The translations under genes were made by a program, and so were the position numbers. The notes beneath the pieces were generated by a model. It did not search any database. It was not told the origin of the DNA and worked only from the letters and a program-made list of their open reading frames with translations. Positions 5,233-44,484 of a DNA stretch of 64,000 nucleotides are shown piece after piece. The stretch's first letter is position 1; each line of letters begins with the position of its first letter. Source of the stretch: a virus (Duplodnaviria; Caudoviricetes); the IMG/VR virus record IMGVR_UViG_3300044633_001982; one strand, written 5' to 3'.

Positions 5233-5982
5233 TTATGATTCTTGCTCCGTTTTGATTATGTTATCATAAAGTATTTTATATTTTTTCATACTTGTTCTTA
5301 TTTCTTTTGTTGACAGATTTGTCATCTCTCTTAATGATAATAAAATTAAATTTTTGTTAAATTTATTATTATCGGATGTTTGAAAAATTTGTTTATAGTT
5401 TTCCAAAATATCACATAACGCAACCCCAAGTTTGTATTCATTTGTACCCTCGTCAAATTCATTAGATTTTTCTTTAACATTTTGTAACAATTTAATTAAA
5501 ATGTTTTCTTTATCATCTTCCTCATCATCTATATAATATGACATATTTGGGTTATTTTCTAAATCACTTGATATATCTTCATACGAAATTTTTCTATTTT
5601 GTTCTTTTTGGTCTTTTAAAATTTGACCCATTAAATAGTTTTTACAAATAGTTCCAAAATATGAATATGCCTTTTTTTCTTTTGACGGACTAAATTTTTC
5701 AATTTTAGTCATTAAAAAAGAATGAGTGTCGGTATGGATTTCATAAAAATCCATGTCTTTTCGATATAATTTATATCTTCTAATAATGGAAGATATCATT
5801 TTATCTAAAGGATGTCTTAAATAATCATTATATATCTTATTCTTTTCATCAAAAGTAGAAGCAGTTAGGAACATCCTAACTGCTAATTCTTCTCTTTGGT
5901 CAAAATAGTTTTCATTTTCAGATTTACTTTTTTTACCCTTTTGAATGATTATTGTTGTTTGTCCTGAATAATCATTGACCAT
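5233..5982 (-). CDS. T4 gp55-like late-transcription sigma factor
   Basis: KKAYSYFGTICKNYLMGQILKDQKE resembles the gp55/sigma region-2 motif (AY.Y.T..C.N.F...I.KE); size fits. Confidence 0.65.
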   Translation of the reverse strand: MVNDYSGQTTIIIQKGKKSKSENENYFDQREELAVRMFLTASTFDEKNKIYNDYLRHPLDKMISSIIRRYKLYRKDMDFYEIHTDTHSFLMTKIEKFSPSKEKKAYSYFGTICKNYLMGQILKDQKEQNRKISYEDISSDLENNPNMSYYIDDEEDDKENILIKLLQNVKEKSNEFDEGTNEYKLGVALCDILENYKQIFQTSDNNKFNKNLILLSLREMTNLSTKEIRTSMKKYKILYDNIIKTEQES

Positions 5983-6788
5983 TAAACTTCTTGTGGTTCG
6001 TATTTTATTTGTCTGTCATCATTGAAAAAATATTCTTTTTTCGCAGAATTAATCCAAAATTTAACCTCATCTTCAGATAAAACATTGTCACCATTTTTGT
6101 AATTCCAAAAAATACCTCCATGTCTTAAATTAATATGTTTGTAACCTAATTTTGGGATTGTCATAATTTTTGAAGAATTATATGTTAAACGTAAGAATAA
6201 CTCATAAACAAATGTTAATTTTATTGAAGGCTTAAACCCTCCAAAATCAAGAAATGTACTTTTCTTAATCACCATTCCTGATGTTTGGAAATTTTGATAT
6301 GAGTGTAAGGTATCATTAGTTAGATACCCCATTTCTTGACTAAAATTAGATGCAAAAGTTGCCTCATTTGTGAATCCGGCAAACACACCCTTATCGTCAA
6401 CGTCAACTACGATTGGTAAAAAACAATCAACATCGTCATAAATTTCAGAATATTTTTTAACATTTTTAAACCAAATTTTAGAATACTCGTCATCAAACTC
6501 AAGAATTGATACCCATTTTGTTTTAGATTCTTTAATACCTAAATTAACTTGACTACAAAAATTAGGTTCTTCTGTGTACTCAATAAGTCTGATATTTAAA
6601 TCACCAAAGTCAAATGAGTTTAAATATTTAACTAAATTGTCTTCAAGTGTGTGAACTATAATTAGTTCAGATGGTTTAACTTCTTGGTTTTGTACAGATT
6701 GTATTGATTTTTCAAAAAAATCAGTAAAAAAAGATGCGATTGCGGATTTAATTGGTAATACTACCGTTAAGTCAAAATTGTTCTCCAT
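5982..6788 (-). CDS. Glycosyltransferase, GT2/GT-A fold
   Basis: TVVLPI start, SIQSVQNQ...ELIIV, EFDDE acidic motif. Confidence 0.75.
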   Translation of the reverse strand: MENNFDLTVVLPIKSAIASFFTDFFEKSIQSVQNQEVKPSELIIVHTLEDNLVKYLNSFDFGDLNIRLIEYTEEPNFCSQVNLGIKESKTKWVSILEFDDEYSKIWFKNVKKYSEIYDDVDCFLPIVVDVDDKGVFAGFTNEATFASNFSQEMGYLTNDTLHSYQNFQTSGMVIKKSTFLDFGGFKPSIKLTFVYELFLRLTYNSSKIMTIPKLGYKHINLRHGGIFWNYKNGDNVLSEDEVKFWINSAKKEYFFNDDRQIKYEPQEV

Positions 6789-6789
6789 A

Positions 6790-7848
6790 TTATGCTTCTA
6801 CTTTAAATTTATTAATTTGTTGTGAAAAATATTCTTCTCTTGAAGACAAATATTTTTTAAATAAGTCAACTATTGAATTATTGAACTTTTCAGTTGAACT
6901 ATATTTTTCTGCGGTAATAGTACCATTCTCATATAATTTTTCAGATATATTATCTTCTATCCAATTTTGGATAAAGTCAGCTACATAATCAACCAACTTA
7001 TCACTTTCTTTCACCCAAATACCATTATCTTGATTTAACCAATCAGGTACAATGTTAGGTACTATACCAATAACTGGACAATTTGAAGACATAGATTCGA
7101 TAGGATATGTTCCAAAAGAACTTTGAGGGTCTATCCATACTGATAAACAAGATTCTTTTAATGTGTTTGAAAATTCTTCTTCAGACAATGCTCTCATATC
7201 TCTAAACGATACCCATCTAAATTGAGGAAATTTCAAATAAAATTTCTTAATAAAATTAATTCCATCTCTTTGTTCTCTAGAATGTACCGCAACAATTGGT
7301 TTAGAAGGATATTTTGATGGACTAAATTTTTCAGATATAACTGGTTCAATAATATCGTATGACACATTTTTCATTATTGGTGCCACATAATTTTTTAACC
7401 ACTCACTTGTGATAATACATTTAGGAAACCCTAATGATGACCAAGATTGACCAGGCGATAAAGTTTCTGTAATCCAATCAGCCGATTGACATAATACAAT
7501 TTTAGCACATGGTAATTTTGTAATTTGAGGCATAACGTACCCAAAAATTTCAGGTATAATAATAAAATCTTCAGGAGAAATTTCAAGTTGTTGACCCTCA
7601 ACAGATGTGTGTGGAAGTTCCATAAACTCAGGACCTAACCATTCTGACACTCCAATGTAATCATTTTGTTCATGCAAGATAATTGGGTTAAATCCATTAT
7701 TTTTTAAAGTCATTGCCATTCTGTAAGTGTGGGCAACAGACGCTTTAGCATTACCTTTAGTGTCTTGAACAAAAAAATAAATTCTTGCGGTTTTATTTTT
7801 TAAATTTTCAACAGAGGTTTGTAATTTTTGTAAATTTGTTTGTTCCAT
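6790..7848 (-). CDS. Glycosyltransferase, GT-B (GT4-like)
   Basis: IIIPEIF segment; C-terminal SFGTYPIESMSSNCPVIG resembles the GT4 E-x7-E region. Confidence 0.65.
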   Translation of the reverse strand: MEQTNLQKLQTSVENLKNKTARIYFFVQDTKGNAKASVAHTYRMAMTLKNNGFNPIILHEQNDYIGVSEWLGPEFMELPHTSVEGQQLEISPEDFIIIPEIFGYVMPQITKLPCAKIVLCQSADWITETLSPGQSWSSLGFPKCIITSEWLKNYVAPIMKNVSYDIIEPVISEKFSPSKYPSKPIVAVHSREQRDGINFIKKFYLKFPQFRWVSFRDMRALSEEEFSNTLKESCLSVWIDPQSSFGTYPIESMSSNCPVIGIVPNIVPDWLNQDNGIWVKESDKLVDYVADFIQNWIEDNISEKLYENGTITAEKYSSTEKFNNSIVDLFKKYLSSREEYFSQQINKFKVEA

Positions 7849-7860
7849 ATTTGTTTATTA

Positions 7861-8127
7861 TTAATATTTTTTTAATACTCCGATGTTAAGTAGAGTATTC
7901 CATGCAAGTTTATAAGGTAGACTAACTGCGCTTTTAGGACCAAGGGCCTCATCCGCGTCTTCTCTTTCGGTGATTAATACATCAATCATTGTTTTAATCA
8001 TTTCATATTTTACAACAGAAATATGTTGTTCAGTTTTACCCGACTCATCAATAGTCGGAGATAAATTTACTTGTGACTCAATCGTAGTGATGTCCAAGTA
8101 ATAGTGTTCATTAAATAAGGTCAACAT
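7861..8127 (-). CDS. Hypothetical protein
   Basis: 88-aa ORF within the operon. Confidence 0.6.
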   Translation of the reverse strand: MLTLFNEHYYLDITTIESQVNLSPTIDESGKTEQHISVVKYEMIKTMIDVLITEREDADEALGPKSAVSLPYKLAWNTLLNIGVLKKY

Positions 8128-8779
8128 ATTTTATTTTTTCAATTTTTTTAATTAAATCTTTTATTGTGTCAATTTCACAGTTCGCAATTACATCTTTATT
8201 ATATGAAGTTTTAAATTTTATACATTTTTCAGGATATAATTTAATTAATTCAGGGTTTGAAGTAATAATTACATCATAATTAGAAAGTTTTTTTTGTAAA
8301 TTGTTGTTATTATAAAAAATAACAGAATCAATTAAACATCCAAATTTAGATATAAAAAATAAAGATGCGGGTTTAGATTTACCCACGCATTTTGAAAATA
8401 TTGAAAAATCATATTTATTTTTTGTCGATTCAATTATTTCGTTTAAAGACACGAAAGTATCCATTTCAGTTGATGGTGAGTGACCAAAAATTTGCATTAC
8501 AAAATCTTCGTAAATAAAATTATAATAATCTTCTTCACTTGGAAATTTAAAATGATTTTCTAAATCCAAAGAGTTAACTGGTAAAATCATTTCATAAATA
8601 AATGAATCTTGATGTTCGTTAAGAACTGTATTCCCCGATTCATCTAAAGTGTACGTTTTAATTGGTTCCGAGAATTCGTCAGTTTGAGTTTCTAAATAAT
8701 TTTTTTCATATAATTGACTAATTTTTAAAATATTATCTCTTAAAACTCCGTCTAAATCAATACCAATTTTAGTTATCAT
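8111..8779 (-). CDS. HAD-superfamily 5'(3')-nucleotidase-like protein
   Basis: N-terminal IGIDLDGVLRD HAD motif I. Confidence 0.6.
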   Translation of the reverse strand: MITKIGIDLDGVLRDNILKISQLYEKNYLETQTDEFSEPIKTYTLDESGNTVLNEHQDSFIYEMILPVNSLDLENHFKFPSEEDYYNFIYEDFVMQIFGHSPSTEMDTFVSLNEIIESTKNKYDFSIFSKCVGKSKPASLFFISKFGCLIDSVIFYNNNNLQKKLSNYDVIITSNPELIKLYPEKCIKFKTSYNKDVIANCEIDTIKDLIKKIEKIKYVDLI

Positions 8780-9506
8780 ATTTTTTTAAAATTTTAGAAA
8801 TTATTGGGTTACGGACAATATCTTCGTCTCCAAAAACATGGATTGCAATGTCATTAACATCTTTAAATTTATCTAAAGCGTCAAATAACCCCGAATGTTT
8901 CTTATCTTTATATCTATCAGTTTGCTCAATGTCACCTGAAATAAAAAACTTACTATTAAACCCTATACGAGTTAATAATAATTTCATTTGACCTGGAGAA
9001 GAATTTTGAGCCTCCTCAAAAATTAATATAGAATTATCTATATTCATTCCTCTCATATATGCCAATGCAAATACTTCAATTACCTCAATTTGTTTTAATT
9101 TTTCTCTATTTTCTTTACCAATAATTTTATTTAATAAATAAAAAGATGGAAAAATATAAGGGTCCAATTTTTCTTCTAAATTTCCAGGTAACGAACCTAA
9201 TTTTTCCTCAGCTTCAACAGCAGGTCTTACTATGATTATTTTTTCATATGGTGTCTTTGGGTCTTGTAATAAATCAACCGCACATTTCATTGCAATAAAA
9301 CTTTTACCAACACCAGCAGGACCTGAACAAATTGTAATTTGATTGTTAACTAATTTATCATAGTACTCTTCTTGTCCTTGTGACAAAAATTTATTTTTAG
9401 TCTTACCTTTAATGATTTGACTAATTTGTTCTTTCTTACTAATCTTTGATTTTACCTCTGTTTGAAAAGTTTGAGGTTCTTTAGTGGGTGTTTTTTTTCT
9501 AGTCAT
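8769..9506 (-). CDS. phoH: PhoH-family ATPase
   Basis: GPAGVGKS Walker A, RPAVEAEEKLGSLPG, YMRGMNI, EEAQN, GDIEQTD. Confidence 0.95.
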   Translation of the reverse strand: MTRKKTPTKEPQTFQTEVKSKISKKEQISQIIKGKTKNKFLSQGQEEYYDKLVNNQITICSGPAGVGKSFIAMKCAVDLLQDPKTPYEKIIIVRPAVEAEEKLGSLPGNLEEKLDPYIFPSFYLLNKIIGKENREKLKQIEVIEVFALAYMRGMNIDNSILIFEEAQNSSPGQMKLLLTRIGFNSKFFISGDIEQTDRYKDKKHSGLFDALDKFKDVNDIAIHVFGDEDIVRNPIISKILKKYDN

Positions 9507-9521: not shown

Positions 9522-10520
9522 TTAATGGTTAACATTACCATCACTGTAATAAACAAACCAATAATTAATCATTTCATCTAACATTGTCTCAAATGTGTAA
9601 TCGTGAGACCATCCTGTTGATTTAATTAATTTAGATGAGTCTCCTTTTAAATCGTGTAGTTCTTCAGGCCTTAAAAATTTTTCGTCTTGTGCCACATATT
9701 CTTTATAGTCTAAACCTAATGATGTGAAAACATAATCACAAAGTTCTCTAACTGAATGTGAGATACCTGTGGCACAAACAAAATCATCAGGTTTGTCTAA
9801 TTGTAAAATTTCCCACATTGCTTTAACATAATCTTTGGCGTGTCCCCAATCTCGTGTTGCATCAAGATTACCCAATTTTAACTCATTAGATAGTCCTAAT
9901 TTAATCTTAACAGCTTCTTTACATACTTTATTGGTAACAAAGTTTGTTCCTCTTCTCGGTGATTCATGATTAAATAAAATTCCGTTTGAAATAAACATTC
10001 CGTAAGAATTTCTATAATTACGACAAATATTATAACTAAATACTTTGGAACAACCGTATGGTGATACAGGATTTAAAGGAGTAGTTTCTCTTTGAAACCC
10101 ATCTGAATCTATAGTGTTACCAAACATCTCAGATGATGACGCTTGATATATTTTGGTATTTGGTTTAATTAATTTAACCGCTTCTAATAAATTTAAAGTA
10201 CCTATACCTGTAACATTAGCGGTGTAAATTGGTTGGTCAAAAGATATTCTTACGTGGGATTGTGCTGCAAGATTGTAAATTTCATCCGGCATTACTTTTT
10301 GGATAATACTAATTAATGATGAAAGGTCAGTCATATCGGCGTAATGTAAAATTATTTTATCATATACGTTTTGTAATCTTGATGTTTGATTTTCGGAAAC
10401 TGAATTACGTTTAAGTGTTCCATGTACCTCATACCCCTTTTCTAATAAAAGTTCAGAAAGATATGACCCATCTTGACCATTAATACCTGTAATTAATGCA
10501 ATTTTTTTATCCATTTTCAT
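9522..10520 (-). CDS. gmd: GDP-mannose 4,6-dehydratase
   Basis: ALITGINGQDGSYL, YNLAAQSHV, QASSSEMFG, SPYGCSK, FNHESPRRG, RDWGHAKDYV. Confidence 0.97.
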   Translation of the reverse strand: MKMDKKIALITGINGQDGSYLSELLLEKGYEVHGTLKRNSVSENQTSRLQNVYDKIILHYADMTDLSSLISIIQKVMPDEIYNLAAQSHVRISFDQPIYTANVTGIGTLNLLEAVKLIKPNTKIYQASSSEMFGNTIDSDGFQRETTPLNPVSPYGCSKVFSYNICRNYRNSYGMFISNGILFNHESPRRGTNFVTNKVCKEAVKIKLGLSNELKLGNLDATRDWGHAKDYVKAMWEILQLDKPDDFVCATGISHSVRELCDYVFTSLGLDYKEYVAQDEKFLRPEELHDLKGDSSKLIKSTGWSHDYTFETMLDEMINYWFVYYSDGNVNH

Positions 10521-11661
10521 TTATAATTTTACTTATTTTTTGAATTTCATTAATCGTTAAATCTTGATGATTTGGAATGTAAAATCCGTATTTATCAATT
10601 AATTCGCAATTTTTTAAATCAATTTTTCCGTAGTTTTCATACCACATTGGTTTATTTGACATGTTACCTGCAATAAGTGGTCTAACTTCAATATTATTTT
10701 TAATTAATTCATTAACAATTTTTTCTTTATTTTTGTTAACAATTGGTAACGCAAAATTTGATATAAAATTATTATCATCAATTTTTATATTTAAATCATT
10801 CACATTAATTAAATCTAAATAATTTTTAAAATTTTGATTTCTAATTAAACAATATTTGTCTAATTTATCAATAGCTCTAAGACCAATAAACGCTTGTAAA
10901 TCTGTAGACCGTAGATTGAACCCAGGTACGTAAAAGTTATATAAAGACGTGAAGTCATCTACAGAATATTTTTCACGTAATGATTTTTGTTTTTCTAACG
11001 GTAAATCTCTATCCCAACCGTGACTTCTCATCATTAATAATAAATGATAAAAATCTTCATCATTAGTATTAATAAACCCGCCTTCAATTGTACTTAAATG
11101 GTGTCCAAAATACATTGAAAAAAATGACGCAAACCCAAAAGAACCTAAATAATCGTTTTTATATTTTGACCCCATACTCTCACACACATCTTCAAATAGT
11201 ACAACGTCATATTTTTCACATAAACTTATAATTTTTTCCATGTCAGGAACTAAACCTAATGGAGATACTAAAATAAATGATGATGGGGACTCGGTTTTAA
11301 AAATATGTTCTAAGTGTTCTAAGTCACAAGACAAATCTTCTAAATTACAATCACACATAATTGGTTCCATACCAAGTAATATTGGAGAACTAACGTCTGT
11401 TGCCCAACTTAATGATGGAATTACTATTTTTTTATTTTTAATTTTTTTTGAATATAAAAAAGCGGCTAATGAAAGTAATATTGACGAGGACCCTGAATTA
11501 ACAAAAACCGAATATTTTGTCCCAATTTTTTTCGCCCATTTTTTTTCTAATTCAATAGTTAAATCACCTTTAGTTAACCTAGGTATCTCATCTTGAGATA
11601 ACCATTCTACAAGATACTTAATATCTTCTTTATTTATCGTATCACTTACTAATTTTATCAT
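10507..11661 (-). CDS. colD: ColD-like GDP-4-keto-6-deoxymannose 3-dehydratase (DegT/DnrJ family)
   Basis: FVNSGSSS, EDVCES, YFGHHLSTIEGG with His where aminotransferases have the Schiff-base Lys, RSHGWDRDLP, PGFNLR; lies between gmd and an fcl-like gene. Confidence 0.8.
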   Translation of the reverse strand: MIKLVSDTINKEDIKYLVEWLSQDEIPRLTKGDLTIELEKKWAKKIGTKYSVFVNSGSSSILLSLAAFLYSKKIKNKKIVIPSLSWATDVSSPILLGMEPIMCDCNLEDLSCDLEHLEHIFKTESPSSFILVSPLGLVPDMEKIISLCEKYDVVLFEDVCESMGSKYKNDYLGSFGFASFFSMYFGHHLSTIEGGFINTNDEDFYHLLLMMRSHGWDRDLPLEKQKSLREKYSVDDFTSLYNFYVPGFNLRSTDLQAFIGLRAIDKLDKYCLIRNQNFKNYLDLINVNDLNIKIDDNNFISNFALPIVNKNKEKIVNELIKNNIEVRPLIAGNMSNKPMWYENYGKIDLKNCELIDKYGFYIPNHQDLTINEIQKISKIINENG

Positions 11662-12550
11662 AAACTTGTTTTATACCTTTTTCAAAAGGTAATGGACTAA
11701 AATTGGGAAGTAAATTATTTAACTTGTCTATTGACACATCTTTTCGGTATTGTCCATCAGGTTTTGTAGAATCAAAATTAATTTTAATATGTCCTAAGTT
11801 TAAAGAGTTTAACGAAATTTCAGCAATTTCTCTGATTGATAAATTTTCTTTATTTGCCACATTAAAACTTTCATATATATTCTTTGTTAAACATTCATTA
11901 ATAACCCAAGCTAAATCATCGGAATGCATAAATTGTCTTAATGGATTTCCTGAACCAAATAAAGTGATTTCACTTTGTGATAGTTTATTGGCTTGAATAA
12001 TCTTTTCAAGTAAGGCTGCGACAAAATGACTGTTTTCTCCCATTTTATCATTTTCACCGTATAAATTACAAGGTATTAAATATTGATAATTAGTACCATA
12101 TTGTTTGTTTAAAGAATCTATTTGGACTGCCAAACATCTTTTTGAATAACCGTAGGAAAAGTTAGTAATTGTTGGGGGACCTAAATGTAAATCAGTTTCA
12201 TTCATTGGATATTTTTCTACTGAATCAGGATAAATACACGTTGATAAAATTCCAATAAATTGAGTAACCCCAAATTTATATGAATACTCGACCATGTAAG
12301 TATTCATCTTAATATTTTCAATAAAATAATCGTATGGTTTTTTTATGTTGTCAATAATGCCCCCAACCTTAGCTGCTAAATGAACTATTTTGGTTGGTTT
12401 ATGTGTTTCAAACATACGTTTAACATCGTCTTCTTTAGTTAAATCATAATCTTTTGATGAAACGTATATTGAATGAGGTAGTAATTTTAAAAGTGATTTT
12501 CCTACCATTCCTGAACCACCAGTTATTAAAATTATTTCCTTATCTTTCAT
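11642..12550 (-). CDS. fcl: GDP-L-fucose/colitose synthase (Fcl/ColC-like reductase)
   Basis: LITGGSGMVG, HLAAKVGGI, STCIYP, YGYSKR, PCNLYG, GSGNPLRQF, DGQYRK. Confidence 0.9.
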   Translation of the reverse strand: MKDKEIILITGGSGMVGKSLLKLLPHSIYVSSKDYDLTKEDDVKRMFETHKPTKIVHLAAKVGGIIDNIKKPYDYFIENIKMNTYMVEYSYKFGVTQFIGILSTCIYPDSVEKYPMNETDLHLGPPTITNFSYGYSKRCLAVQIDSLNKQYGTNYQYLIPCNLYGENDKMGENSHFVAALLEKIIQANKLSQSEITLFGSGNPLRQFMHSDDLAWVINECLTKNIYESFNVANKENLSIREIAEISLNSLNLGHIKINFDSTKPDGQYRKDVSIDKLNNLLPNFSPLPFEKGIKQVYDKISK

Positions 12551-13211
12551 TTAAATAATCTATAATTTTATGCCTATCAATATCCATTAATCCCCTTTTG
12601 GTGTCAAATTCCCACTCAGTCTCCTCAAATCGTTTTAAAGTTTCTAATTTGTCCGATGTTAATTCATCATGTAATCTTATGTGATTAATAGATAAATCTA
12701 TTTGTTTAAATAAACTTAAACCATCTAACATAAAATATAAATAACCGTCATAAAAAACTGATTTAGATACACACCCAATAATGTCTAAAATACTTTTCGA
12801 TATTATTGGGAAATACCAAGTCTCGTTATGTGGGAATGCCGGATTATGATGTAAACAAATGAATTCACCCGAATACGGTTTAACTAAAGTATCCCATTTA
12901 TCAGTAATTATTGTCATATCGTCATTGGCACAAAATATAAATTCCCCTGAAGATTTTTCATAAAGTTCATTATAGAATTCATTAAGAGATGCGTACCCAT
13001 TTTTTCGCCCCGAAACAACTATAGTTATAAAATTAAATTTATCATATGATTTTAAACCATTAATTGTTTCAGTATCATCGTCGTCTACTTTAACTAATAT
13101 TTCAATATTATTTATATCATCACATTTATCAATTAAAGAATTTAATGTTTGTAATAAAAATTCGATTCTACCCCTACTTGGTAGAATTACACTAATTAAT
13201 TTTTTATTCAT
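12540..13211 (-). CDS. Glycosyltransferase, GT2-like
   Basis: SVILPSRGR, VKVDDDD, CANDDM. Confidence 0.7.
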   Translation of the reverse strand: MNKKLISVILPSRGRIEFLLQTLNSLIDKCDDINNIEILVKVDDDDTETINGLKSYDKFNFITIVVSGRKNGYASLNEFYNELYEKSSGEFIFCANDDMTIITDKWDTLVKPYSGEFICLHHNPAFPHNETWYFPIISKSILDIIGCVSKSVFYDGYLYFMLDGLSLFKQIDLSINHIRLHDELTSDKLETLKRFEETEWEFDTKRGLMDIDRHKIIDYLNER

Positions 13212-14347: not shown

Positions 14348-14370
14348 TTTATTTGTTTTTTTTATTTTTA

Positions 14371-14949: not shown

Positions 14950-14953
14950 TTTT

Positions 14954-34343: not shown

Positions 34344-34379
34344 TTTTATTTTTATATTTTTTGGTTAAAAATACTAATA

Positions 34380-35624: not shown

Positions 35625-35626
35625 TT

Positions 35627-36469: not shown

Positions 36470-37455
36470 AGACTATAAGAATAAGTAGAGCTAATTTTCC
36501 AGGTGTGGGGAATTTTTCATGGATGAATTTCTTTTATGAAATATTATCCAAAAAATATAATGTAATAATAGATTCTAAAAATCCTGATTTGGTTATTTAT
36601 ACTAACCAATTTTACAGAGAAAACGAATTAGATTTTTACACTAACGAAATTGTTAAAGGTATTCATGAATACAATGATAACGTAAAAAAAATATTCATAA
36701 GTGGTGAGGCAAGACCTGATTTCTTATCTCATTTAAATAAAGGGGAAAACTATTACGCTTTAGGATATGAACACCATGACCATGACAGATATTTAAGGTT
36801 CCCAACATATGTTTTAGACGCGCATGTACTCCATAATGAAGGAGGTCTATTTGAAAGTAATTTTGGTTGGTTAACCAAACCAAAAAAATACGAAGATATT
36901 AAACTAATAAAAAAACATTTTTGTAGTTTAGTTCAAGCAAGTTTTAATCCCGATAGAGACCAATTTTTTAATATTGTGGAAAAGTATCATTATATTAAAA
37001 GTTCAGGTCCGTATCGACAAACAATACCTGATTCAGAAACCTTAAATCCTCACAAATATCATAACTATTCCAATAAAGATTATATGGGAAAAATTGACGG
37101 GTTAACCTATAGGGATAAAATTAATTTTTTCTCAGACTGTACATTCAACATGGCTTTTCAATATACTAATACGGATTATCTAACTCAAGAAAAAATAATA
37201 CATGCATTCGCTTCTAATTCAATTCCAATATTTTATGGTAACCAATACATTGAAGAAGAAGGATTTAATCCTGAGTCATTTATCAATGCTCACAAATTTA
37301 AAAATTTTGATGAATTAGTCGATGAATTAAATACAATATATTCTGATAATAATAAATTAAAATCTTATTTTGAATCTCCTATTTTTAATGAAAATAAATT
37401 ACCAATTTATTTCGATGAGGATTACATTTTAGATTTTTTTAGTAAAATTATTTAA
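36466..37455 (+). CDS. GT10 alpha-1,3/4-fucosyltransferase (FutA-like)
   Basis: NPDLVI, ISGEARPDF, YLRFP, FCSLV, YLTQEKIIHAFASNSIPIFYG, FNPESFIN. Confidence 0.85.
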   Translation: MKTIRISRANFPGVGNFSWMNFFYEILSKKYNVIIDSKNPDLVIYTNQFYRENELDFYTNEIVKGIHEYNDNVKKIFISGEARPDFLSHLNKGENYYALGYEHHDHDRYLRFPTYVLDAHVLHNEGGLFESNFGWLTKPKKYEDIKLIKKHFCSLVQASFNPDRDQFFNIVEKYHYIKSSGPYRQTIPDSETLNPHKYHNYSNKDYMGKIDGLTYRDKINFFSDCTFNMAFQYTNTDYLTQEKIIHAFASNSIPIFYGNQYIEEEGFNPESFINAHKFKNFDELVDELNTIYSDNNKLKSYFESPIFNENKLPIYFDEDYILDFFSKII

Positions 37456-37456
37456 T

Positions 37457-38134
37457 ATGAAATCAATTTCTTACAGTTTATTTGGATTAGACTACAAATA
37501 TTACACAGGTGCTGAGAAAAATATTTTAATCAATCAAAAGTTATTACCTGATTGGGAAACGGTGATTTATTACCATCCTGAAATGATTCGTAACGAATAT
37601 ATTGATAAATTATCAAATATGGGGGCAAAAATGATTGACGTGTCGTCTTTTTCATTTGGTAATCGTCCTCCAAAAGATTACCCATTTTTTTGGAGATTTA
37701 TTTCTTTTTTTGATGACGGGATTACAATATCTAGAGATTTAGATAGTAGACTTTCTGAACGAGAAGTGGAATATATCAATAGATGGGTACAATCTAATAA
37801 AGATTATTTTATAATAAGAGACCACCCGTGGCATTCTCCAGTACCTAGTGGTTTATTTGGTATAATACGAAAAATTACTGATTTTGAGGACCATTTTAAT
37901 AGTTTTATTAGTAGTTCTGATTTGAGATGGGGGACTGACCAAGAAATTTTACATGAATATATGTCAAAAATTTCAGATGATAATATTTTTTACTGTGGGT
38001 ATGACAAACCTGAGACCTATATACGTAGAGATAATAAAAATTTTTTTATTGGAATTCAGTTAGATGAATACGATAACCCAACTAAACCAAGCGGGGAGCA
38101 ATGCCTGCAATATTTAAATGATTTAAATTTATAA
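37457..38134 (+). CDS. Hypothetical protein, possible glycan-modifying enzyme
   Basis: ISYSLFG, FWRF, SRDLDSR DxD motif, IIRDHPWH, GTDQ; lies in the GT operon. Confidence 0.55.
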   Translation: MKSISYSLFGLDYKYYTGAEKNILINQKLLPDWETVIYYHPEMIRNEYIDKLSNMGAKMIDVSSFSFGNRPPKDYPFFWRFISFFDDGITISRDLDSRLSEREVEYINRWVQSNKDYFIIRDHPWHSPVPSGLFGIIRKITDFEDHFNSFISSSDLRWGTDQEILHEYMSKISDDNIFYCGYDKPETYIRRDNKNFFIGIQLDEYDNPTKPSGEQCLQYLNDLNL

Positions 38135-38136
38135 AT

Positions 38137-38877
38137 ATGAGATACTGTTTTACAACACTAGCAATCAACGAACCTTATGAAACTATCACTCCTGAGTTTT
38201 ATAAAGAGTTACGTGAAAAAACTAAAGAATGTGAGTTTTTTATCACAACAAATAATGAACAATTAAGAAATCAAGGTGACAGAATTCACACAAAAATTGT
38301 TAACCCACCATTATATGATTCAAGGGGAGGATTTAATTTTAATTTAAATTTAAAAGTTTTATCTTTAAAACATATACTAGAACATCAGAAAGAAACTGGA
38401 AATAGTCCCGATTATATTATTTTTACTGATGGTGATTGGAGAATGCATGATGGATTTGATGAACAAAAAATATTAAACATGCTTGACCATATGGAACAAA
38501 ATAATGTTGATTTTTTGTTTGAAAGACCCGCACCAATTGGTCCTCACAAGTTAAATCCAAATGAAAGTTTTTTTAGAGATAAACTTTTTGATTACGATGT
38601 TTTTGACCATAATAAATGGGATGAGGCTCATGTGGTTAACGAACAATTTTTAGTTTTTAGGAACAATTCAAAATTTAAATTTTTTGTACAAAGATGGGAA
38701 CAATTTTTATGGTATAGTATCGCTAATGACATTAGAAATTATCCTGATGGTTTTGAAATTGGAATTTCAGCATTAGAAGCTGACATGAAATACCAATATG
38801 AAGGAGTTTTAAATCACTTCATTCAAAATTGTTTTTCGTTCTACACTAAACTTGGAGATTTTCACGTTAGATTCTAA
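38137..38877 (+). CDS. Putative GT-A glycosyltransferase
   Basis: LK...LK...DYIIFTDGDW DxD motif; operon context. Confidence 0.5.
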   Translation: MRYCFTTLAINEPYETITPEFYKELREKTKECEFFITTNNEQLRNQGDRIHTKIVNPPLYDSRGGFNFNLNLKVLSLKHILEHQKETGNSPDYIIFTDGDWRMHDGFDEQKILNMLDHMEQNNVDFLFERPAPIGPHKLNPNESFFRDKLFDYDVFDHNKWDEAHVVNEQFLVFRNNSKFKFFVQRWEQFLWYSIANDIRNYPDGFEIGISALEADMKYQYEGVLNHFIQNCFSFYTKLGDFHVRF

Positions 38878-39797
38878 TGAAAACTAAAATAGTAACCGCC
38901 TTATGGCTAGATGTCGCTGGGTACCCTTTCCAAGGGGCTAGCTCAGTTAGAAAAGATAGATATTATGGGTCTTTAATTAGTCATTGCCGTGGTATTAATT
39001 TTCCAGTTGTTTGTTACACTCACGAAAAAAATAAATCCGAAATTGAAAAACTTAAATTAGATTATAATTTATCTAATCTTGAAATTAAAATATTGGAATT
39101 ATCTGACATGAAGTATCATAAAAAAATAAAAGATGTTAGAGATAAAAATTTTGATACTGACTTAGATGGTAGAGGACCTGAAATAATGTGGGGAAAATTC
39201 CAAGTTCTTGAACAAGAGTTAGAAGGTTTTGATAGGGTCTATTGGGTTGACGGAGGATTACAACATCCAGGGATATTCCCGTGGATGTACTGTGTTCCAT
39301 ATGGGGATAAAAAATTTCATAATCCAAATGAAGTACCTGTGTGGAATAATAATCAAATATCTCAATATGATTTTACAAAATTATTCAATACTGAACTTTT
39401 CATAAAAATGAATGAGATTAGTGAGAATAAAGTTTTAAATTTAACCGCAACAAATCCTCAATCAGGATATGTTTTTAAAACTAAAGGAATAATTGATTAT
39501 GATATTAGACCATATTATCCTATTGCAGGTATGATTGGAGGAGATACTAAACAGTTAAAAAATTATATAAATGAGTATTGGAATTTTTGTGATAAAATTA
39601 TTGATAAAGAATTTTTATGTACAGAAGAATCAATAATGAAATTAGTTTATGATAAATTAAAAGACATTGTTCATCCTTTAATTTTTGACGTTCACCAAAC
39701 TGATGAACATGACCAATATCATTTTGAACTTTGGGACCCATCTTGGGGTAAACCTAAACCATTATACATGGTTTGGATAGACATTTTAAATAGTTAA
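38877..39797 (+). CDS. HtrL/YibB-like putative glycosyltransferase
   Basis: IVTALW, KFQVL...YWVDGG, AGMIGG, TEESIM; similar to the N-terminal half of 40661..42343. Confidence 0.6.
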   Translation: MKTKIVTALWLDVAGYPFQGASSVRKDRYYGSLISHCRGINFPVVCYTHEKNKSEIEKLKLDYNLSNLEIKILELSDMKYHKKIKDVRDKNFDTDLDGRGPEIMWGKFQVLEQELEGFDRVYWVDGGLQHPGIFPWMYCVPYGDKKFHNPNEVPVWNNNQISQYDFTKLFNTELFIKMNEISENKVLNLTATNPQSGYVFKTKGIIDYDIRPYYPIAGMIGGDTKQLKNYINEYWNFCDKIIDKEFLCTEESIMKLVYDKLKDIVHPLIFDVHQTDEHDQYHFELWDPSWGKPKPLYMVWIDILNS

Positions 39798-39801
39798 AAA
39801 T

Positions 39802-40674
39802 ATGAATGCGTATATTACTACCGGTATGAATTCAGGTTTGGGGGATATGTATTCAACAATCTATTCAGTATATCTAACACAAGAAAAATTAAAAGAGATG
39901 GGATATAAGGTTAAAACTTATGTTGATTTTGGCCTAAATCCTTATAAAATGAATAATGAAAATAGAGATGTTTTTTTTAAAATTTTTAAATTAGACAAGT
40001 TAGATAATTTTACATTTTTTACTAGTGGATTTAGTCCTCATGAAGGAAATTTTCCTGAAAGAAATGAAACTAAATTAGTTATTGATAATTCAAAAATATA
40101 TTATGTTTATGTTGATGAGATTATTGAGGGAGTGGAAGATTTAAATAATTTTCCTCATATTGAAAATTATAGAAAATGGATAATGTACGATGAGTGGCCA
40201 AAATTAAGTTTTTTAACTGACGAAGTGGTGTCATTCTGCGAAGAAAAACTAAAATCATTTCCTGAAAATTTTTATTGTGTACATTACAGACCTTTTGAAT
40301 TAAATAACCAAACTGAAGAATTATCAAATTCAATACAGTCAATTAAAAATTTTATTGAAAAAAATCAAGATAGACCAATATTTGTGTTTACACAATTTGA
40401 AATTTTAAAAAATGAACTTAAGCAATGTAATTATAAAAATTTATATTACAATGATTATGTTTATAAAGGTGATTTAAGTACAACAAGAAGTTTAGGATTA
40501 AGTGATGATGAATTAATGTATTTTTTTAAATCTACTTTATTTGAGATGTATGCAATGTCTAAATCTGAAAAAATATTTAGAATATGTAATTGGTGGTCTG
40601 TTTTTTTATTTTTTGCGGCATCGTACAATCAAACTAAATTAAGTAATAACATTAGATTTTTTGATTATGAGTAA
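39802..40674 (+). CDS. Putative O-fucosyltransferase-like (GT-B) protein
   Basis: SGLGDM at the N-terminus, CVHYR, IFVFT, EMYAMSKS pattern of NodZ/GT23/GT11-like enzymes. Confidence 0.45.
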   Translation: MNAYITTGMNSGLGDMYSTIYSVYLTQEKLKEMGYKVKTYVDFGLNPYKMNNENRDVFFKIFKLDKLDNFTFFTSGFSPHEGNFPERNETKLVIDNSKIYYVYVDEIIEGVEDLNNFPHIENYRKWIMYDEWPKLSFLTDEVVSFCEEKLKSFPENFYCVHYRPFELNNQTEELSNSIQSIKNFIEKNQDRPIFVFTQFEILKNELKQCNYKNLYYNDYVYKGDLSTTRSLGLSDDELMYFFKSTLFEMYAMSKSEKIFRICNWWSVFLFFAASYNQTKLSNNIRFFDYE

Positions 40675-42343
40675 GATAACTTTAGTTACAGGGCTTTGGG
40701 ATTTAAAAAGAGATGGGTTAAATGAAGGATGGGCGAGACCATTTAAAGAACACTATTTAGAAAAATTTAAACAACTTCTAACAATTGAGGAAAATTTAAT
40801 AATATTTGGAGACTCTGAGCTTGAAAAATTTGTTTGGGAAAACCGAAAATCTGAGAACACTCAATTTGTATTAAGAGAATTATCGTGGTTTAAAAATGAG
40901 TTTTTTGGCAAAATTCAAGGTATTAGAAATGACGAAAAATGGTATAATCAATCTTCATGGTTACCTGAGTCTACACAGTCAAAATTAGAATTTTACAACC
41001 CATTAGTGATGTCTAAAATGTTTCTTCTTCACGATGCAAAAATTTTAGATAAATTTAATTCTGATAAATTATTTTGGATAGATGCTGGTATAACAAATAC
41101 AGTTCACGTAGGGTATTTTACACATGATAATGTATTAAAAAAAATAGATAGTAAAATTACTAAATTTTCTTTCATTTGTTTTCCATACGATGCAAACAAT
41201 GAAATTCACGGGTTTTCATATCCTAAAATTAATGATTGGGCGAATGATGATGTAAGATTAGTTGGACGAGGAGGGTTTTTTGGAGGAACAAAAGAATCTA
41301 TTGCGGAAGTAAATTCCCTTTATTATGGGTTGTTAAATGAAACTCTATCTCAAGGTTATATGGGTACTGAAGAATCAATATTTTCAATAATGGTTTATAA
41401 GTACCCAAAAATTATAAATTATTTCGAAATAAATTATGATGGATTATTAGGTACATTTTTTGAAAATGCTAAAAATGAAATTTTAGAAGTAAAAAATAAA
41501 TTACCAATTAATTTGTATAATGGTTTAGATATCGATAAAACGTCTTTATATGTTATTGGTTTTAACAGTCCTAAACAACTTGAAACTTTAATTACTTCTA
41601 TGATATCGTATGACAAGGATTTCATAGAAAAACCAAAAAAATATCTTTTAAATAATTCTACTGATAGAACTACTGATGAACAATATATAAAAATATGTGA
41701 GTTACATAATTTTGAAATAATTTGGTCTGAAGAAAATTTAGGAATTTGTGGTGGTCGACAATTTATAGCTGAACATTTTGAAAAAAGTGATAGTGACTTT
41801 ATGTTTTTTTTCGAAGACGATATGTTTTTTTATCCTGAAGAAGGACAAGTATGTAAAAATGGATTTAATAGATATGTAAAAAATTTATATAACAAATCAT
41901 TAAACATTATTAAAAATTATAATTTTGATTTTTTAAAATTAAATTATACCGAATTTTTTGGTAATAATGGGACCCAATGGAGTTGGTATAATGTACCTCA
42001 GTCATTTAGAGAAAAACATTGGCCTGAAAATCCAAAATTACCTGAAATGGGATTGGACCCAAATTCTCCAAAAACTAAGTTTACATCAATAACATCGTAT
42101 GAAGATATACCTGTTGCTACAGGTGAAATATTTTATTGTAATTGGCCTCAAATAGTTTCCAAATCAGGAAATCAAAAAATGTTTTTAGAAACAAAATGGA
42201 ATCATCCGTATGAACAAACATGGATGAGTCACATGTTTCAAGAAACAGTCATTGGTAATCTAAATCCAGGATTATTGTTAATTACACCTACTGAACATAA
42301 CCGTTTTGAACATTATGATTCAAAATTAAGGAAAGAAAGTTAA
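40661..42343 (+). CDS. HtrL/YibB-like domain fused to a GT-A domain
   Basis: TLVTGLWDL, SKMFLL...FWIDAG, GGFFGG, TEESIF; C-terminal NLGICGGR...FFFEDD. Confidence 0.7.
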   Translation: MIMSKITLVTGLWDLKRDGLNEGWARPFKEHYLEKFKQLLTIEENLIIFGDSELEKFVWENRKSENTQFVLRELSWFKNEFFGKIQGIRNDEKWYNQSSWLPESTQSKLEFYNPLVMSKMFLLHDAKILDKFNSDKLFWIDAGITNTVHVGYFTHDNVLKKIDSKITKFSFICFPYDANNEIHGFSYPKINDWANDDVRLVGRGGFFGGTKESIAEVNSLYYGLLNETLSQGYMGTEESIFSIMVYKYPKIINYFEINYDGLLGTFFENAKNEILEVKNKLPINLYNGLDIDKTSLYVIGFNSPKQLETLITSMISYDKDFIEKPKKYLLNNSTDRTTDEQYIKICELHNFEIIWSEENLGICGGRQFIAEHFEKSDSDFMFFFEDDMFFYPEEGQVCKNGFNRYVKNLYNKSLNIIKNYNFDFLKLNYTEFFGNNGTQWSWYNVPQSFREKHWPENPKLPEMGLDPNSPKTKFTSITSYEDIPVATGEIFYCNWPQIVSKSGNQKMFLETKWNHPYEQTWMSHMFQETVIGNLNPGLLLITPTEHNRFEHYDSKLRKES

Positions 42344-42349
42344 TCTGTA

Positions 42350-42357
42350 TATTTATT
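42350..42357 (+). promoter_or_regulatory. Putative late promoter TATTTATT
   Basis: 13 nt before the ATG at 42371. Confidence 0.55.
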
Positions 42358-42370
42358 GTAAAAACAATAA

Positions 42371-42739
42371 ATGGAATTCTATATTGGTCAAAATACCACT
42401 TTACCTATATTAAAGATGCAAGTTGTTAAAGACGGTAAACACGATATTGACACTATGTTACAAATTATTGAGGAATCTGTATTATACTTTTCAATGAAAG
42501 ACATTAATAATGGAAGTTATAAAATATTAAATTCTTCTGCCGGTTTTGTTGAAAAAATATTTTTAGAACCAAACTCTGATGTTGAATATTATATTTACTA
42601 TAAATTTTCAAAAAATGACACGTCTAAATCAGGAAGATTTGAAGGTGAGTTTTTGTTAAAATCTGAAAATGGAACTCTTTTATTACCAATAAGAGATAAA
42701 TTATTCATAAACGTTACCGAATCAACAATAACCACTTAA
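42371..42739 (+). CDS. BppU-N-like single-domain structural protein
   Basis: F.I..N.TLP.LK start and [18 protein letters not shown]...[11 protein letters not shown] end. Confidence 0.5.
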
Positions 42740-44484
42740 TGGAATTTTTTATAAAAAAGAATGCGACGTTACCTTTATTGAAATTTGAAATATTTCAAGA
42801 TGGTAGGAGCGATTTTAATAACATACAAAATTTAAGCGGCGTAACCTCAAGTTATATAACATTAATTGACCCTGTAAATTCGGAAATAAAATTCGCAAGT
42901 AGACCATGTTCAATTGTTACAGGACAATCTGAGTATGATGACACAAAAATACTTTATTTTGTTGAGTATCAATTTAAAAACGAAGAAACAAAAAAATTAG
43001 GTAGATATGTGGTAGAATTATCAATAGTTGATACAAACGGTTCAGTTGTTTTTAAAATAAGAGATAGAGTTTTTGTTAATATAATTGATAGTTTTTCAAT
43101 AGATGGATACTCATTTGCAAATAGTTATGAGGTAGAGTATCCTTGTTGTGACCAAGTATTACCAATACCAATACCTGTAACCCCTCCAAACACACCTTCT
43201 AGCACTGCGACCCCAACAAGTACGGTAACAGTTACTCCAACTGTAACACCAACAACGACCTCAACTCCAACACCTACTCCAGATAATACTAAAACCCCAA
43301 CACCTACTTCTACTCCAACAATGTCCGCAACACTAACCCAAACACCAACTAACACAACTACTCCGACTAATACACCAACAATGACCTCAACATTAACTCA
43401 AACACCAACTAATACACCAACTAATACTCAAACTCCGACAACGACTACAACTCCTACAAATACAAAAACACCGACTAAAACACAAACTCCAACAAATACT
43501 ACTACCCCTACCCCTACTCCAACTGTAACTGTAACTCCTACAAATACTTCAACGCCAGCCATGACCCCGTCCGTAACTAATACGTCAACAGTTACACCTA
43601 CTAACTCAATTACGCCAACAAATACCCCTACTAACTCGATTACACCAACAAATACACCAACAAATACAATAACACCTAGTATTACTCCAACAAATACAGT
43701 AACCCCAACAATTACCCCAACAAAATTCCCAGTAACAACTGTGGTTGGTTCTTTTTATACTTTGGTTTATCCAAATGGTTCAATTTATAATACTGTTTGT
43801 CAATATGTTTACCCTGGCAATTATGTTAACAATTTTACAACTACCACACTAATTACGACAACCCCAACTTCTTGGTATTCAAAAGGATTTTCAACAACCA
43901 CAGGTGAAATTAGACATTTCTATTTTAACGGATATCAGACTATACGATATAATTCAAGTCCTAATTCATCAAATATAAGTTTATTAACTTTATCTGGAAA
44001 TTTTGACAGGTCATTTGTTGCTTTATCAACCACATCTCTTATTGTTTCTAAAAACAATTTTTCAGCAGGAAATGGAAATGAAATAAGACAAATATCTACA
44101 GAAAATTCTAGCTTTACATCACTTGCGGTATTACCATATGGAAGATTTACTACTGGTGGTATAATTAAAACAACAACAAATAGACTTATTGTTATTACGT
44201 CTAATGTTACTAATAACGACTTTTTATTAACTCAATATAATTTAAATTTACCATTGTCAAATCCATCTACAGTTGAAGTACAAATTAATTTAACAAATAA
44301 TATAAGTAACCCTTCAGGTATTTTTGTTTCAAATTCAGAGTTTTATGTATCGTCAGGGACTGGTCAAATTTATAATATATCTAAAACACCTCCGTACACA
44401 ATAACAAATGTTGCGTCATCTAATACACCGTTTAAAGGGTTTGGTCAAAATAGTGATATTTGGAATGTTCATTTTAGTGTGTAA
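42739..44484 (+). CDS. Putative virion fibre/appendage: BppU-N-like domain, Thr/Pro mucin-like stalk, C-terminal beta domain
   Basis: N-terminus paralogous to 42371..42739; about 190-aa TPT/TNTPT tract; beta-rich C-terminus. Confidence 0.7.
43160..43730 (+). repeat. Coding low-complexity repeat (TPT/TNTPT/TVTPT)
   Basis: Degenerate Thr/Pro repeats; boundaries approximate. Confidence 0.9.

Follow-up and report, generated by a model that had tools for sequence, protein, structure and literature searches.

Two hypervariable glycosyltransferase islands in an uncultured freshwater jumbo myovirus, with a probable role in mucin-type O-glycosylation of virion appendages

Results

Two gene islands for glycan synthesis lie in a conserved phage frame

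The 64,000-nucleotide stretch of viral DNA analysed here (IMG/VR virus record IMGVR_UViG_3300044633_001982; hereafter the window) contains, between positions 5982 and 44484, a large set of genes for activated sugars and glycosyltransferases (GTs), which are arranged as two hypervariable islands in a conserved frame. The system is modular and lineage-wide and is not peculiar to this phage. The stretch probably encodes cytoplasmic, lipid-carrier-independent mucin-type O-glycosylation of virion appendages in an uncultured freshwater jumbo myovirus. Relatives were compared at 236 related loci, and five large relatives (G001–G005, one of them complete) were used for whole-genome tests.

The window is densely coding with a GC content of 26–34%. 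Its genes run on the minus strand across 1–30495 and on the plus strand across 30472–47368, and they include the phage hallmarks family-B DNA polymerase (polB), SNF2 helicase, PhoH, dUTPase, exonuclease, tail sheath, tail tube and baseplate hub. By polB no cultured phage is close, the top match being Salinibacter phages at 22% identity. IMG/VR holds hundreds of related contigs, the largest of 215–321 kb, with polB 72–99% identical. The full 64 kb window is collinear with 74.7–133 kb of the relative G001, a 293,850-bp IMG/VR record that is 100% complete by CheckV and has its first ~100 bases repeated near the end. The window therefore belongs to a jumbo myovirus, and collinearity with this complete phage genome (293.8 kb) rules out a chimera or a bacterial chromosome.

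An earlier note on this DNA had counted about 17 GT-like open reading frames (ORFs) and described nucleotide-sugar pathways of the Gmd/ColD/Fcl type and of the NeuB/CMP-transferase type with tailoring enzymes. The pathways are matched by Pfam and NCBIfam, and the count was reproduced: 11 ORFs have solid hidden Markov model (HMM) matches in Pfam or PHROG (those at 5982, 12540, 20607, 21319, 22142, 22960, 23604, 26539, 34380, 36466 and 40661), one was found by profile-profile comparison and five are weak matches or leads. Credible transmembrane helices were found in none of the ORFs of 5982–44484, the sugar and GT ORFs included. Island 1 and its flanking frame genes are:

5982–7848, minus strand: two frame GTs, present in 80/80 PhoH loci
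5982–6788, minus strand: GT2 (PF00535, E 1.2e-7)
6790–7848, minus strand: GT1/GT4-like (PF00534, E 6.9e-4, under the cut-off; weak)
7861–9506, minus strand: 88-residue ORF, HAD/NT5C-like gene (NT5C match weak) and PhoH (PF02562, E 1.5e-62), with synteny
9522–12550, minus strand: GDP-6-deoxyhexose pathway (Gmd, ColD-signature 3-dehydratase, Fcl/ColC-like reductase)
9522–10520, minus strand: Gmd (NCBIfam 396 bits, cut-off 415)
10507–11661, minus strand: DegT-fold enzyme with the 'FGHH' signature (SMYFGHHLSTIEGG motif); closest model RfbH, 161 bits
11642–12550, minus strand: Fcl/ColC-like reductase (Fcl model 189 bits, cut-off 500)
12540–13211, minus strand: GT2 (PF00535, E 3e-8)
13208–20603, minus strand: ulosonic-acid cassette (Pfam; NCBIfam NeuB_NnaB 228 bits, GmhA 171, PseF 102)
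13511–14434, minus strand: NeuB (PF03102, E 1e-59)
19136–19822, minus strand: PseF-like cytidylyltransferase (102 bits)
from 20607, minus strand: MptE/Maf/CST-I-like (PF01973, E 2.7e-16, 60 bits, over its cut-off)
from 21319, minus strand: GT11 (PF01531, E 2e-26)
from 22142, minus strand: GT10 (PF00852, E 1.5e-6)
from 22960, minus strand, block end 23607: GT25 (PF01755, E 3.7e-13)
23604–25241, minus strand: conserved two-domain GT, GT2_5 plus GT4 N-domain (PF13712, E 2.5e-27; PF13439, E 8.6e-12)
26539–27795, minus strand: frame GT after the dUTPase and exonuclease genes (phrog_7162 glycosyltransferase, E 2.8e-44)

Island 1 is bordered at the left by the frame genes at 7861–9506 and at the right by the two-domain GT at 23604–25241, which is kept in relatives. 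The left flank (A372 ... GT2, GT1-like gene, 88-residue ORF, HAD-like gene, PhoH) was present in 80/80 loci, and the right flank (GT2_5+GT4, dUTPase, exonuclease, GT) is also kept; its last GT (26539–27795) is 64–81% identical in relatives. The content between the flanks ranges from zero genes to the 15 of the window, and the 20 fully captured configurations comprise 159 proteins in 77 BLAST families.

The first pathway of the island would end in an activated deoxysugar. In the DegT-fold enzyme (10507–11661) a His takes the place of the aminotransferase Schiff-base Lys, a replacement that marks ColD/E1-type 3-dehydratases. Because an Fcl/ColC-like reductase comes after Gmd and this ColD-signature enzyme, a GDP-colitose/fucose-type product can reasonably be predicted. 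The ulosonic-acid cassette contains a 100-residue ORF, NeuB, a GmhA-like SIS isomerase, a methyltransferase, a short-chain dehydrogenase/reductase (SDR), a TIM barrel, a VOC/glyoxalase protein, a class-III aminotransferase, the PseF-like CMP-transferase and a second methyltransferase. Its upstream enzymes (GmhA-like, class-III aminotransferase) are non-canonical, the NeuB_NnaB, GmhA and PseF scores are all under the NCBIfam equivalog cut-offs, and the PseD match has E 4e-6. Since every equivalog cut-off was missed, the ulosonic acid is probably non-canonical as well. The listed NeuB start is a GTG codon 64 nt inside the upstream SIS gene and the family match begins at residue 33–53; the true start is probably further downstream.

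Island 2 has a fixed first gene, a fixed last gene and a replaceable middle

Island 2 lies on the opposite strand and is followed by two genes of a small Ig-like domain family, here called s122; the list begins with the three genes ahead of it:

30472–32031, plus strand: 519-residue Thr/Pro-repeat protein with two PTQT-type blocks, candidate acceptor (Ser+Thr+Pro 0.43)
32056–34343, plus strand: 195-residue fibre-like ORF (with late-type motif) and the conserved 551-residue V551 (weak LamG and virion-structural matches)
34380–35624, plus strand: GT60-type (PF11397) polypeptide N-acetylglucosamine (GlcNAc)-transferase-like enzyme (218.9 bits, cut-off 21; E 1.7e-64)
35627–40674, plus strand: variable middle (GT11-like gene, GT10 gene, two GT-A-like leads, HtrL-like gene, NodZ/FUT8-like lead)
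from 35627, plus strand: GT11-like (weak GT11/PHROG match)
from 36466, plus strand: GT10 fucosyltransferase (solid HMM match)
from 37457 and from 38137, plus strand: GT-A-like leads (language-model look-alikes only)
from 38877, plus strand: HtrL-like (hhalign probability 99.2%, E 1.6e-19)
from 39802, plus strand: NodZ/FUT8-like lead (language-model look-alike only)
40661–42343, plus strand: HtrL_YibB + GT2-like fusion, last gene of the island (PF09612, E 9.5e-16)
42371–42739, plus strand: s122, 122 residues, with an Ig-like fold resembling BppU-N (late-type motif ahead of the gene)
42739–44484, plus strand: s122 paralogue (581 residues) fused to a ~180-residue TPTNT-type Thr/Pro stalk and a C-terminal domain

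The first gene of the island is conserved as a GT60-type enzyme, which is 50–91% identical among relatives and present as one copy in each of 5/5 large relatives (189–207 bits). PF11397 was found in 0/14 control prokaryote genomes. All characterised GT60 enzymes are polypeptide alpha-GlcNAc-transferases, responsible for the first step of mucin-type O-glycosylation in Ser/Thr-rich domains (PMC8724618). The 74 homologues compared, XacN1 (see below) included, all keep D92-S93-H94 and H229, and by analogy with GT27/GT60 the former triplet would be the metal site of the phage enzyme. The protist GT60 enzymes (Dictyostelium, T. cruzi; PMC8724618) belong to the same Pfam/CAZy family and share the DxH motif, and for both sets Thr/Pro-rich mucin-type repeats are the expected acceptors. 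Unlike the protist enzymes, which are type-II membrane proteins of the Golgi, the phage enzyme is predicted to be soluble and carries a conserved C-terminal extension of ~120 residues. The last gene, the HtrL+GT2 fusion, is likewise well defined, with W139-x-D141-x-G143 and E385-D386-D387 invariant across 71 homologues.

Between these two ends lie 1–9 genes, which fall into at least 63 families in 73 complete cassettes. The Pfam families found among the 63 middle representatives are all glycan-related: GT2, GT25, GT10, GT34, GT11, GT7C, DUF273, seven FkbM-type and other methyltransferases, carbamoyltransferase, pyruvyl transferase, Gmd, epimerase and HAD. Among the window's own middle genes, ORFs 37457, 38137, 38877 and 39802 had no Pfam match at E≤5; the leads 37457, 38137 and 39802 resemble GT8/GT6/Nucleotid_trans-type and NodZ/FUT8-type transferases in language-model comparison. 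In relatives whose polB is ≥95% identical to that of the window the island 2 middles are wholly different, and GT60, HtrL and s122 are 74–91%, 62–82% and 50–89% identical, respectively. Such wholesale replacement of the middle, together with the divergence of the genes around it, indicates that the module behaves like a tail-fibre island in its evolution and recombination.

GT families of the window's island 1 are found in island 2 of other phages, and vice versa, which suggests one gene pool and probably one pathway. In the loci L058–L060, DegT, Gmd and NeuB genes are located inside the GT60 cassette, which ties the sugar pathways to the GT60 route. In these loci (~10000–21000), which come from distant relatives, a tandem pair of GT60 paralogues stands ahead of the DegT, Gmd, NeuB and SDR genes of the cassette.

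Candidate acceptors adjoin and move with the cassette

The acceptor-like Thr/Pro-repeat proteins described in the earlier note are real: the products of 30472–32031 and 42739–44484 are 42–43% Ser+Thr+Pro, and signal peptides were found in neither. The same note had placed structural genes amid the sugar genes; the unambiguous structural genes (sheath, tube, baseplate hub) are at 53–59 kb, outside 5982–44484. In the 519-residue protein each Thr/Pro block is followed by a short, repeated 'QDGS....QNGD.I'-type motif (31600–32031, ~31650–31720). V551 homologues in relatives carry Thr/Pro-rich extensions.

An s122-domain gene directly follows HtrL in 44/68 distinct cassettes and lies within three ORFs in eight more; 10 of the 16 cassettes without it in that range have a strongly Ser/Thr/Pro-rich protein instead. 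Counting the two genes on either side of the cassette, a Ser/Thr/Pro-rich protein was present in 32/37 cases (19/23 when clustered at <70% HtrL identity); the baseline in two relatives' genomes is 10/639 ORFs. This linkage spans very divergent cassettes, and its nominal P-value is inflated by shared ancestry. In G002 the block of GT60, two middle genes, HtrL, s122 and the s122–Thr/Pro fusion has moved intact to a site 55 kb from polB, and in 5/5 relatives s122 lies 5–9 kb downstream of the sole GT60 gene. Enzymes and putative acceptor are thus relocated as a unit. An initial candidate result, that phages without the cassette beside polB lack it, was rejected, as the module sits elsewhere in their genomes. 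Directly after the relocated module of G002 (the record of L124) stands a 4766-residue ORF (168785–183085) with a Ser/Thr/Pro-rich segment.

The s122 domain is N-terminal in 83/84 proteins (119–1644 residues), and Ser/Thr/Pro-rich stalks are present in 39/84. A single-sequence AlphaFold model was discarded (predicted local distance difference test score, pLDDT, 36), and an alignment-based AlphaFold2 model (pLDDT 83.7) is an Ig-like sandwich. Its best solved match is the BppU N-domain region of the TP901-1 baseplate (4v96 residues 18–126, VIA Z 8.3), with generic Ig domains at Z about 7, some one Z unit lower. The other top solved matches come from the baseplates of 80alpha and NF5 and from the neck of Sf14 and of Bas63. 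Against BFVD, a set of predicted viral structures, 50/50 matches at E≤1e-3 are phage proteins, the named ones being minor tail proteins, BppU-N-domain proteins and a tail fibre. A Pfam search of s122 for BppU-N gave no match. No match was obtained in PDB sequence searches with s122 (as a profile), GT60, V551, the 195-residue ORF, the N-domain of the 519-residue protein, the C-domain of the 581-residue protein and three sigma candidates. The s122–Thr/Pro protein at 42739–44484 is the strongest candidate for acceptor and virion appendage.

A late-type promoter-like motif is shared by structural and candidate acceptor genes

The motif TATTTATA[AG] occurs five times in sense orientation in 1205 nt of upstream intergenic DNA, compared with 0.38 expected (13-fold). 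It precedes the sheath, tube, adaptor-like gene and 195-residue ORF and often forms the palindrome TATTTATAAATA, which includes the T4-late-like TATAAATA. The palindrome is found at 1129–1140, 32037–32048 and 48835–48846, 14–24 nt ahead of start codons, and places the motif on both strands. TATAAATA is also present 26 nt upstream of the 519-residue Thr/Pro gene (motif at 30439). Enrichment of ATATTTATW or TATAAATA over the whole window was not observed; the informative tests are the position-restricted, sense-oriented intergenic count and the footprint across phages. In relatives the motif is kept before the adaptor-like gene (97%), V551 (82%), s122 (78%; 45/58) and sheath (72%), and is present before the HtrL, SNF2, o51383 and o51900 starts in just 2–7%.

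No terminator-like hairpin was found in the V551–GT60 or HtrL–s122 gaps, and the two weak plus-strand hairpin candidates both lie within coding sequence. A gp55-like sigma factor, proposed in the earlier note and probably meaning ORF 5233–5982, was not borne out by Pfam, PHROG or PDB (7D7C-type) matches, and the other small conserved ORFs considered as sigma candidates also had no match in these three. ORF 5233–5982 (minus strand) is a conserved 249-residue frame at the end of the minus-strand GT run.

A related module is present in XacN1, whose virions contain glycoproteins

A tblastn search of 50,697 phage records found GT60 and HtrL together in only four isolates, the Xanthomonas phages XacN1 and Xoo-sp13 and the Stenotrophomonas phages CM1 and RAS14. 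In XacN1 (AP018399) the order is ORF334 (GT60-type, 48% identity), ORF333 (carbamoyltransferase), ORF332 (HtrL-like, 28% identical to window ORF 38877), ORF331 and ORF330 (HtrL+GT2, 40%), and the module is convergent with two baseplate-wedge genes, a gene for a 3313-residue protein and a GT9 gene. Like the window, XacN1 has a GT60-type first gene, an HtrL+GT2 last gene, an HtrL-like gene within and structural-gene neighbours. It differs in having three middle genes and no nucleotide-sugar island, s122 or strongly Ser/Thr/Pro-rich neighbour, and in host phylum and phage lineage. At least two XacN1 virion proteins are Schiff-positive, which was credited to phage GTs, with ORF328 and ORF334 named (PMC5852040); GT annotation by those authors was limited to the same two ORFs (PMC5852040). 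This staining is the sole experimental evidence on the module and speaks for virion glycoproteins. In the XacN1 segment 203370–216456 (L264) the giant 3313-residue protein is followed by small ORFs and the GT9 gene.

Export and lipid-carrier genes are absent from the window and the large relatives

The earlier note had reported that the window has no export or polymerisation genes, and this holds: no such family was matched, and 5982–44484 has no polytopic membrane ORF. Lipid-carrier and export genes elsewhere in the genome, looked for in the five relatives, were not found either. Wzx (PF01943), Wzy/WaaL (PF04932) and ABC-2 (PF01061) are absent from G001–G005, and initiating phosphoglycosyltransferases (Bac_transf, WecA/MraY) from both the window and G001–G005. 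As a positive control, all five export/initiation families match in most of the 14 control genomes. A conserved 312-residue protein with 3–4 hydrophobic segments, encoded at G001 192400–193338 (L246 12400–13338), is the sole multi-transmembrane candidate there; it has 2798 database homologues, is lineage-specific and lacks a Pfam domain, and a transporter role is neither assigned nor excluded.

The lineage resembles the moraphages

Moraphages are aquatic jumbo phages of ~200–307 kb with polB, DnaK/DnaJ, glutamine synthetase and about four core GT orthogroups (PMC12619734; Perez-Hernandez et al., 2025). Their predicted hosts are Bacteroidota, and the four GT orthogroups are mentioned without analysis (PMC12619734). 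The complete relative G001 encodes DnaK and a glutamine-synthetase-like protein, and GlnA-like genes are found in 3/5 relatives. The lineage that shares the frame is probably the moraphages, as judged by size range, polB, DnaK, GlnA-like genes and a set of conserved GTs; relatives of the window attain 294–321 kb, and DnaK, GlnA-like genes and the conserved GTs of the frame are found among them. Neither the islands nor the GT60 module nor the acceptor candidates figure in the published description (PMC12619734). The exact cassette of the window was found again in at least 20 lake-water metagenome runs.

Discussion

Glycosylation of virion appendages

Gene content, the layout of islands in a frame, solubility of the enzymes, conservation, linkage, joint relocation, hypervariability, motif sharing and the lack of export genes in relatives are direct observations. 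Glycosylation of the phage's own virion proteins is favoured because the first enzyme is of a polypeptide-specific type, the enzymes are soluble and the relatives lack genes for a lipid carrier, a flippase, a ligase or an exporter; it is favoured further by the linkage of the cassette to Ser/Thr/Pro-rich tail-like proteins with the late-type motif and by the XacN1 glycoproteins. The earlier note had preferred virion proteins over host lipopolysaccharide (LPS) as the target. All the indirect tests point the same way, and the acceptor proposed from them is a candidate.

In the scheme that we infer, which extends to the acceptor, the sugars, the order of the steps and the biological role, island 1 (9.5–23.6 kb) would supply a GDP-3,6-dideoxy/6-deoxyhexose of colitose or fucose type, a CMP-ulosonic acid and additional transferases. 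The GT60-type enzyme of island 2 (34.4–42.3 kb) would place the first N-acetylhexosamine on Thr/Ser residues of Thr/Pro-rich stalks in the cytoplasm, the carriers being the adjacent tail-associated s122-domain proteins, the 519-residue Thr/Pro protein and, in relatives, the V551 extensions. The variable middle enzymes, fed by the activated sugars of island 1, would then lengthen the chain and fucosylate or colitosylate it, a ulosonic-acid cap could be added by the Maf/CST-like ORF, and the HtrL+GT2 fusion would perform one common step; in relatives the chain may also be methylated, carbamoylated and pyruvylated. Fixed to the tail via the BppU-N-like domain, the stalk proteins would form mucin-like glycosylated appendages whose glycan type differs among near-identical phages. 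For the role, linker stiffening or protease protection, adhesion, shielding and receptor engagement are all open candidates; the 'shield or adhesin' of the earlier note is speculation.

Several points weigh against this scheme. The absence of export genes from the phage is not decisive, because host undecaprenyl phosphate (Und-P), flippase and ligase could be used. GT25, GT2, HtrL, Gmd/colitose and NeuB are typical LPS/capsule families, and island 1, which lies among PhoH, dUTPase and exonuclease genes, could have a different target from island 2. The counts for co-occurrence of cassette and Ser/Thr/Pro-rich genes are raised by shared ancestry. The virion placement of the Thr/Pro proteins and s122 is deduced from marginal scores of a modelled fold and from the promoter motif, which stands directly ahead of GT60 in only 32% of relatives. 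Thr/Pro linkers are frequent in phage fibres without known glycosylation, and the glycoprotein evidence is the XacN1 staining, which carries no protein identities and comes from neither this phage nor its clade.

Alternative targets

Because a phage without export genes may use host machinery, remodelling of the host surface is a real rival, which we rate as unlikely. Here soluble phage enzymes would extend host Und-P-linked or lipid A-core intermediates or glycoproteins, host flippases and ligases would export the products, and a changed O-antigen or capsule would prevent superinfection or keep progeny from adsorbing to debris. Such a role has been proposed for the 'LPS gene clusters' of T4-like cyanophages. 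The O-antigen/capsule-type repertoire (Gmd, ColD-type, NeuB, GT2, GT25, GT11, GT10, HtrL), the flanks of island 1 (PhoH, dUTPase and exonuclease, with no virion genes) and a hypervariability like that of bacterial O-antigen loci agree with it. However, neither the window nor the five relatives encode an initiating phosphoglycosyltransferase, flippase, polymerase/ligase or ABC exporter, the conserved first enzyme comes from a polypeptide-specific family, and the cassette is tightly linked to, and relocates with, Ser/Thr/Pro-rich tail-protein-like genes; glycoproteins are moreover present in XacN1 virions.

A division of targets is a more doubtful proposition still. Island 2 would then modify the virion appendages, and island 1 with the four frame GTs another acceptor, such as the capsid or a different virion protein, an oligosaccharide that is free or secreted, or the surface of the host. 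The islands are indeed ~10 kb apart on opposite strands with unlike flanks, some phages have a near-empty island 1 and yet possess island 2, the position of island 2 varies, and the frame GTs are conserved independently of either island. A single pathway is suggested instead by the shuttling of the same GT families between islands, by the fucosyltransferase-type enzymes of island 2, an island that in the window contains no GDP-sugar pathway, and by the DegT, Gmd and NeuB genes inside the GT60 cassette of L058–L060.

T4 and phages with arabinosylated or multi-sugar hydroxymethyl-pyrimidines are precedents for DNA glycosylation, and we know of no fucosyl-, sialyl/Maf-like or polypeptide-type transferase acting on DNA. 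Hypermodification, with glycans on modified phage bases as a protection against restriction, is very improbable here, although the islands adjoin dUTPase, exonuclease and polB and DNA glucosylation is among the possible roles suggested for the moraphage core GTs (PMC12619734), because the thymidylate-synthase homologue of G001 is a canonical ThyA (~260 bits to PDB thymidylate synthases, no dCMP hydroxymethylase in its top 60 PDB matches) and the enzyme repertoire does not fit, 17 GTs with methyl-, carbamoyl- and pyruvyl-transferases being far beyond known DNA glycans; the Ser/Thr/Pro-rich linkage would also be left unexplained.

Relation to known systems and significance

Virus-encoded glycosylation of virions is already known from PBCV-1, the Megavirinae fibrils, the mycobacteriophage capsid and tail tube, and the XacN1 stain. 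The Megavirinae fibril clusters and chlorovirus PBCV-1 have their own pathways for rare bacterial-type sugars, soluble GTs and methyltransferases; their glycosylation is cytoplasmic, without lipid carrier, endoplasmic reticulum or Golgi, and the gene sets are clade-specific. The window resembles them in virus-encoded sugar pathways, soluble GTs and the absence of lipid-carrier machinery (known here from the genes). Those are giant viruses of eukaryotes, however, and the window's clade differs in its cassette-like variation with fixed first and last genes; to our knowledge no GT60 initiator beside mucin-like acceptor genes has been described in them. T4-like cyanophages such as P-SSM2 carry 'LPS/cell-wall' clusters in which Gmd-type sugar genes and GTs occur but flippase and polymerase genes do not. 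These are likewise large sugar/GT blocks in aquatic myoviruses, with an equally unproven target, and we know of no coupling in them to a polypeptide GT or Ser/Thr/Pro-rich tail-like genes.

In mycobacteriophages, phage GTs modify the phage's own structural proteins, for which shielding was proposed (Freeman et al., 2023, as cited in PMC12619734). One to few GTs lie by the capsid or tail-tube genes, with glycans on the C-termini of the capsid and tube subunits; in the account given there, sugar-nucleotide pathways, GT60 and hypervariable islands do not figure (PMC12619734). In the literature on GT60 in phages and on jumbo-phage glycosylation, no description of the present system was found. New are the GT60-initiated mucin-type module in phages, the cassette with fixed first and last enzymes, its coupling to Ig-anchored Ser/Thr/Pro-rich acceptor candidates, the second, rare-sugar island, and the occurrence of these in an abundant freshwater jumbo-phage lineage.

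If glycosylation of the appendages is correct, it would be the first case of mucin-type (GT60-initiated) O-glycosylation of proteins by a bacterial virus. Virion glycosylation would then be a major, fast-evolving trait of abundant lake jumbo phages that takes up >10% of the genome, rather than an oddity confined to giant viruses of eukaryotes and a handful of actinophages. As the gene for the enzyme lies next to that for its probable substrate, the system can be tested directly, in E. coli and in XacN1-type phages. A fixed initiator, a swappable middle and a fixed last enzyme would also lend themselves to use as a toolbox in glyco-engineering. The architecture implies 'glycotypes' of phages, comparable to the serotypes of bacteria, which would bear on host recognition, particle adhesion, resistance to proteases and grazers, and immune recognition of therapeutic phages.

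A bolder extension, for which we hold out little likelihood, is that the glycan determines host range, with the GT islands as a receptor-binding module written in sugar and the glycosylated mucin-like stalks as a bait for outer-membrane proteins of the SusD/TonB type, with which the presumed Bacteroidota hosts capture glycans. It would explain the tail-fibre-like evolution of the cassette (GT60, HtrL and s122 at 50–91% identity where polB is ≥95%), and the exchange of a small number of transferase genes would be enough to retarget the phage.

Other features of the window

In the frame between the islands, the dUTPase (25238–25837, minus strand) has an N-terminal extension of ~70 residues, and a small conserved WYL-domain protein is encoded at 28419–28802 (minus strand). 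The 653-residue protein of 2884–4845 (minus strand) has two hydrophobic segments and is 33–36% identical in relatives, compared with 60–75% for its neighbours; it is a possible candidate for the tape-measure-like protein, which the authors on the moraphages could not find. An Fe/Mn superoxide dismutase with an N-terminal extension of ~60 residues is encoded at 48847–49632 (minus strand). Its homologues in relatives are of 224–734 residues, and the late-type motif lies just upstream in 74% of them.

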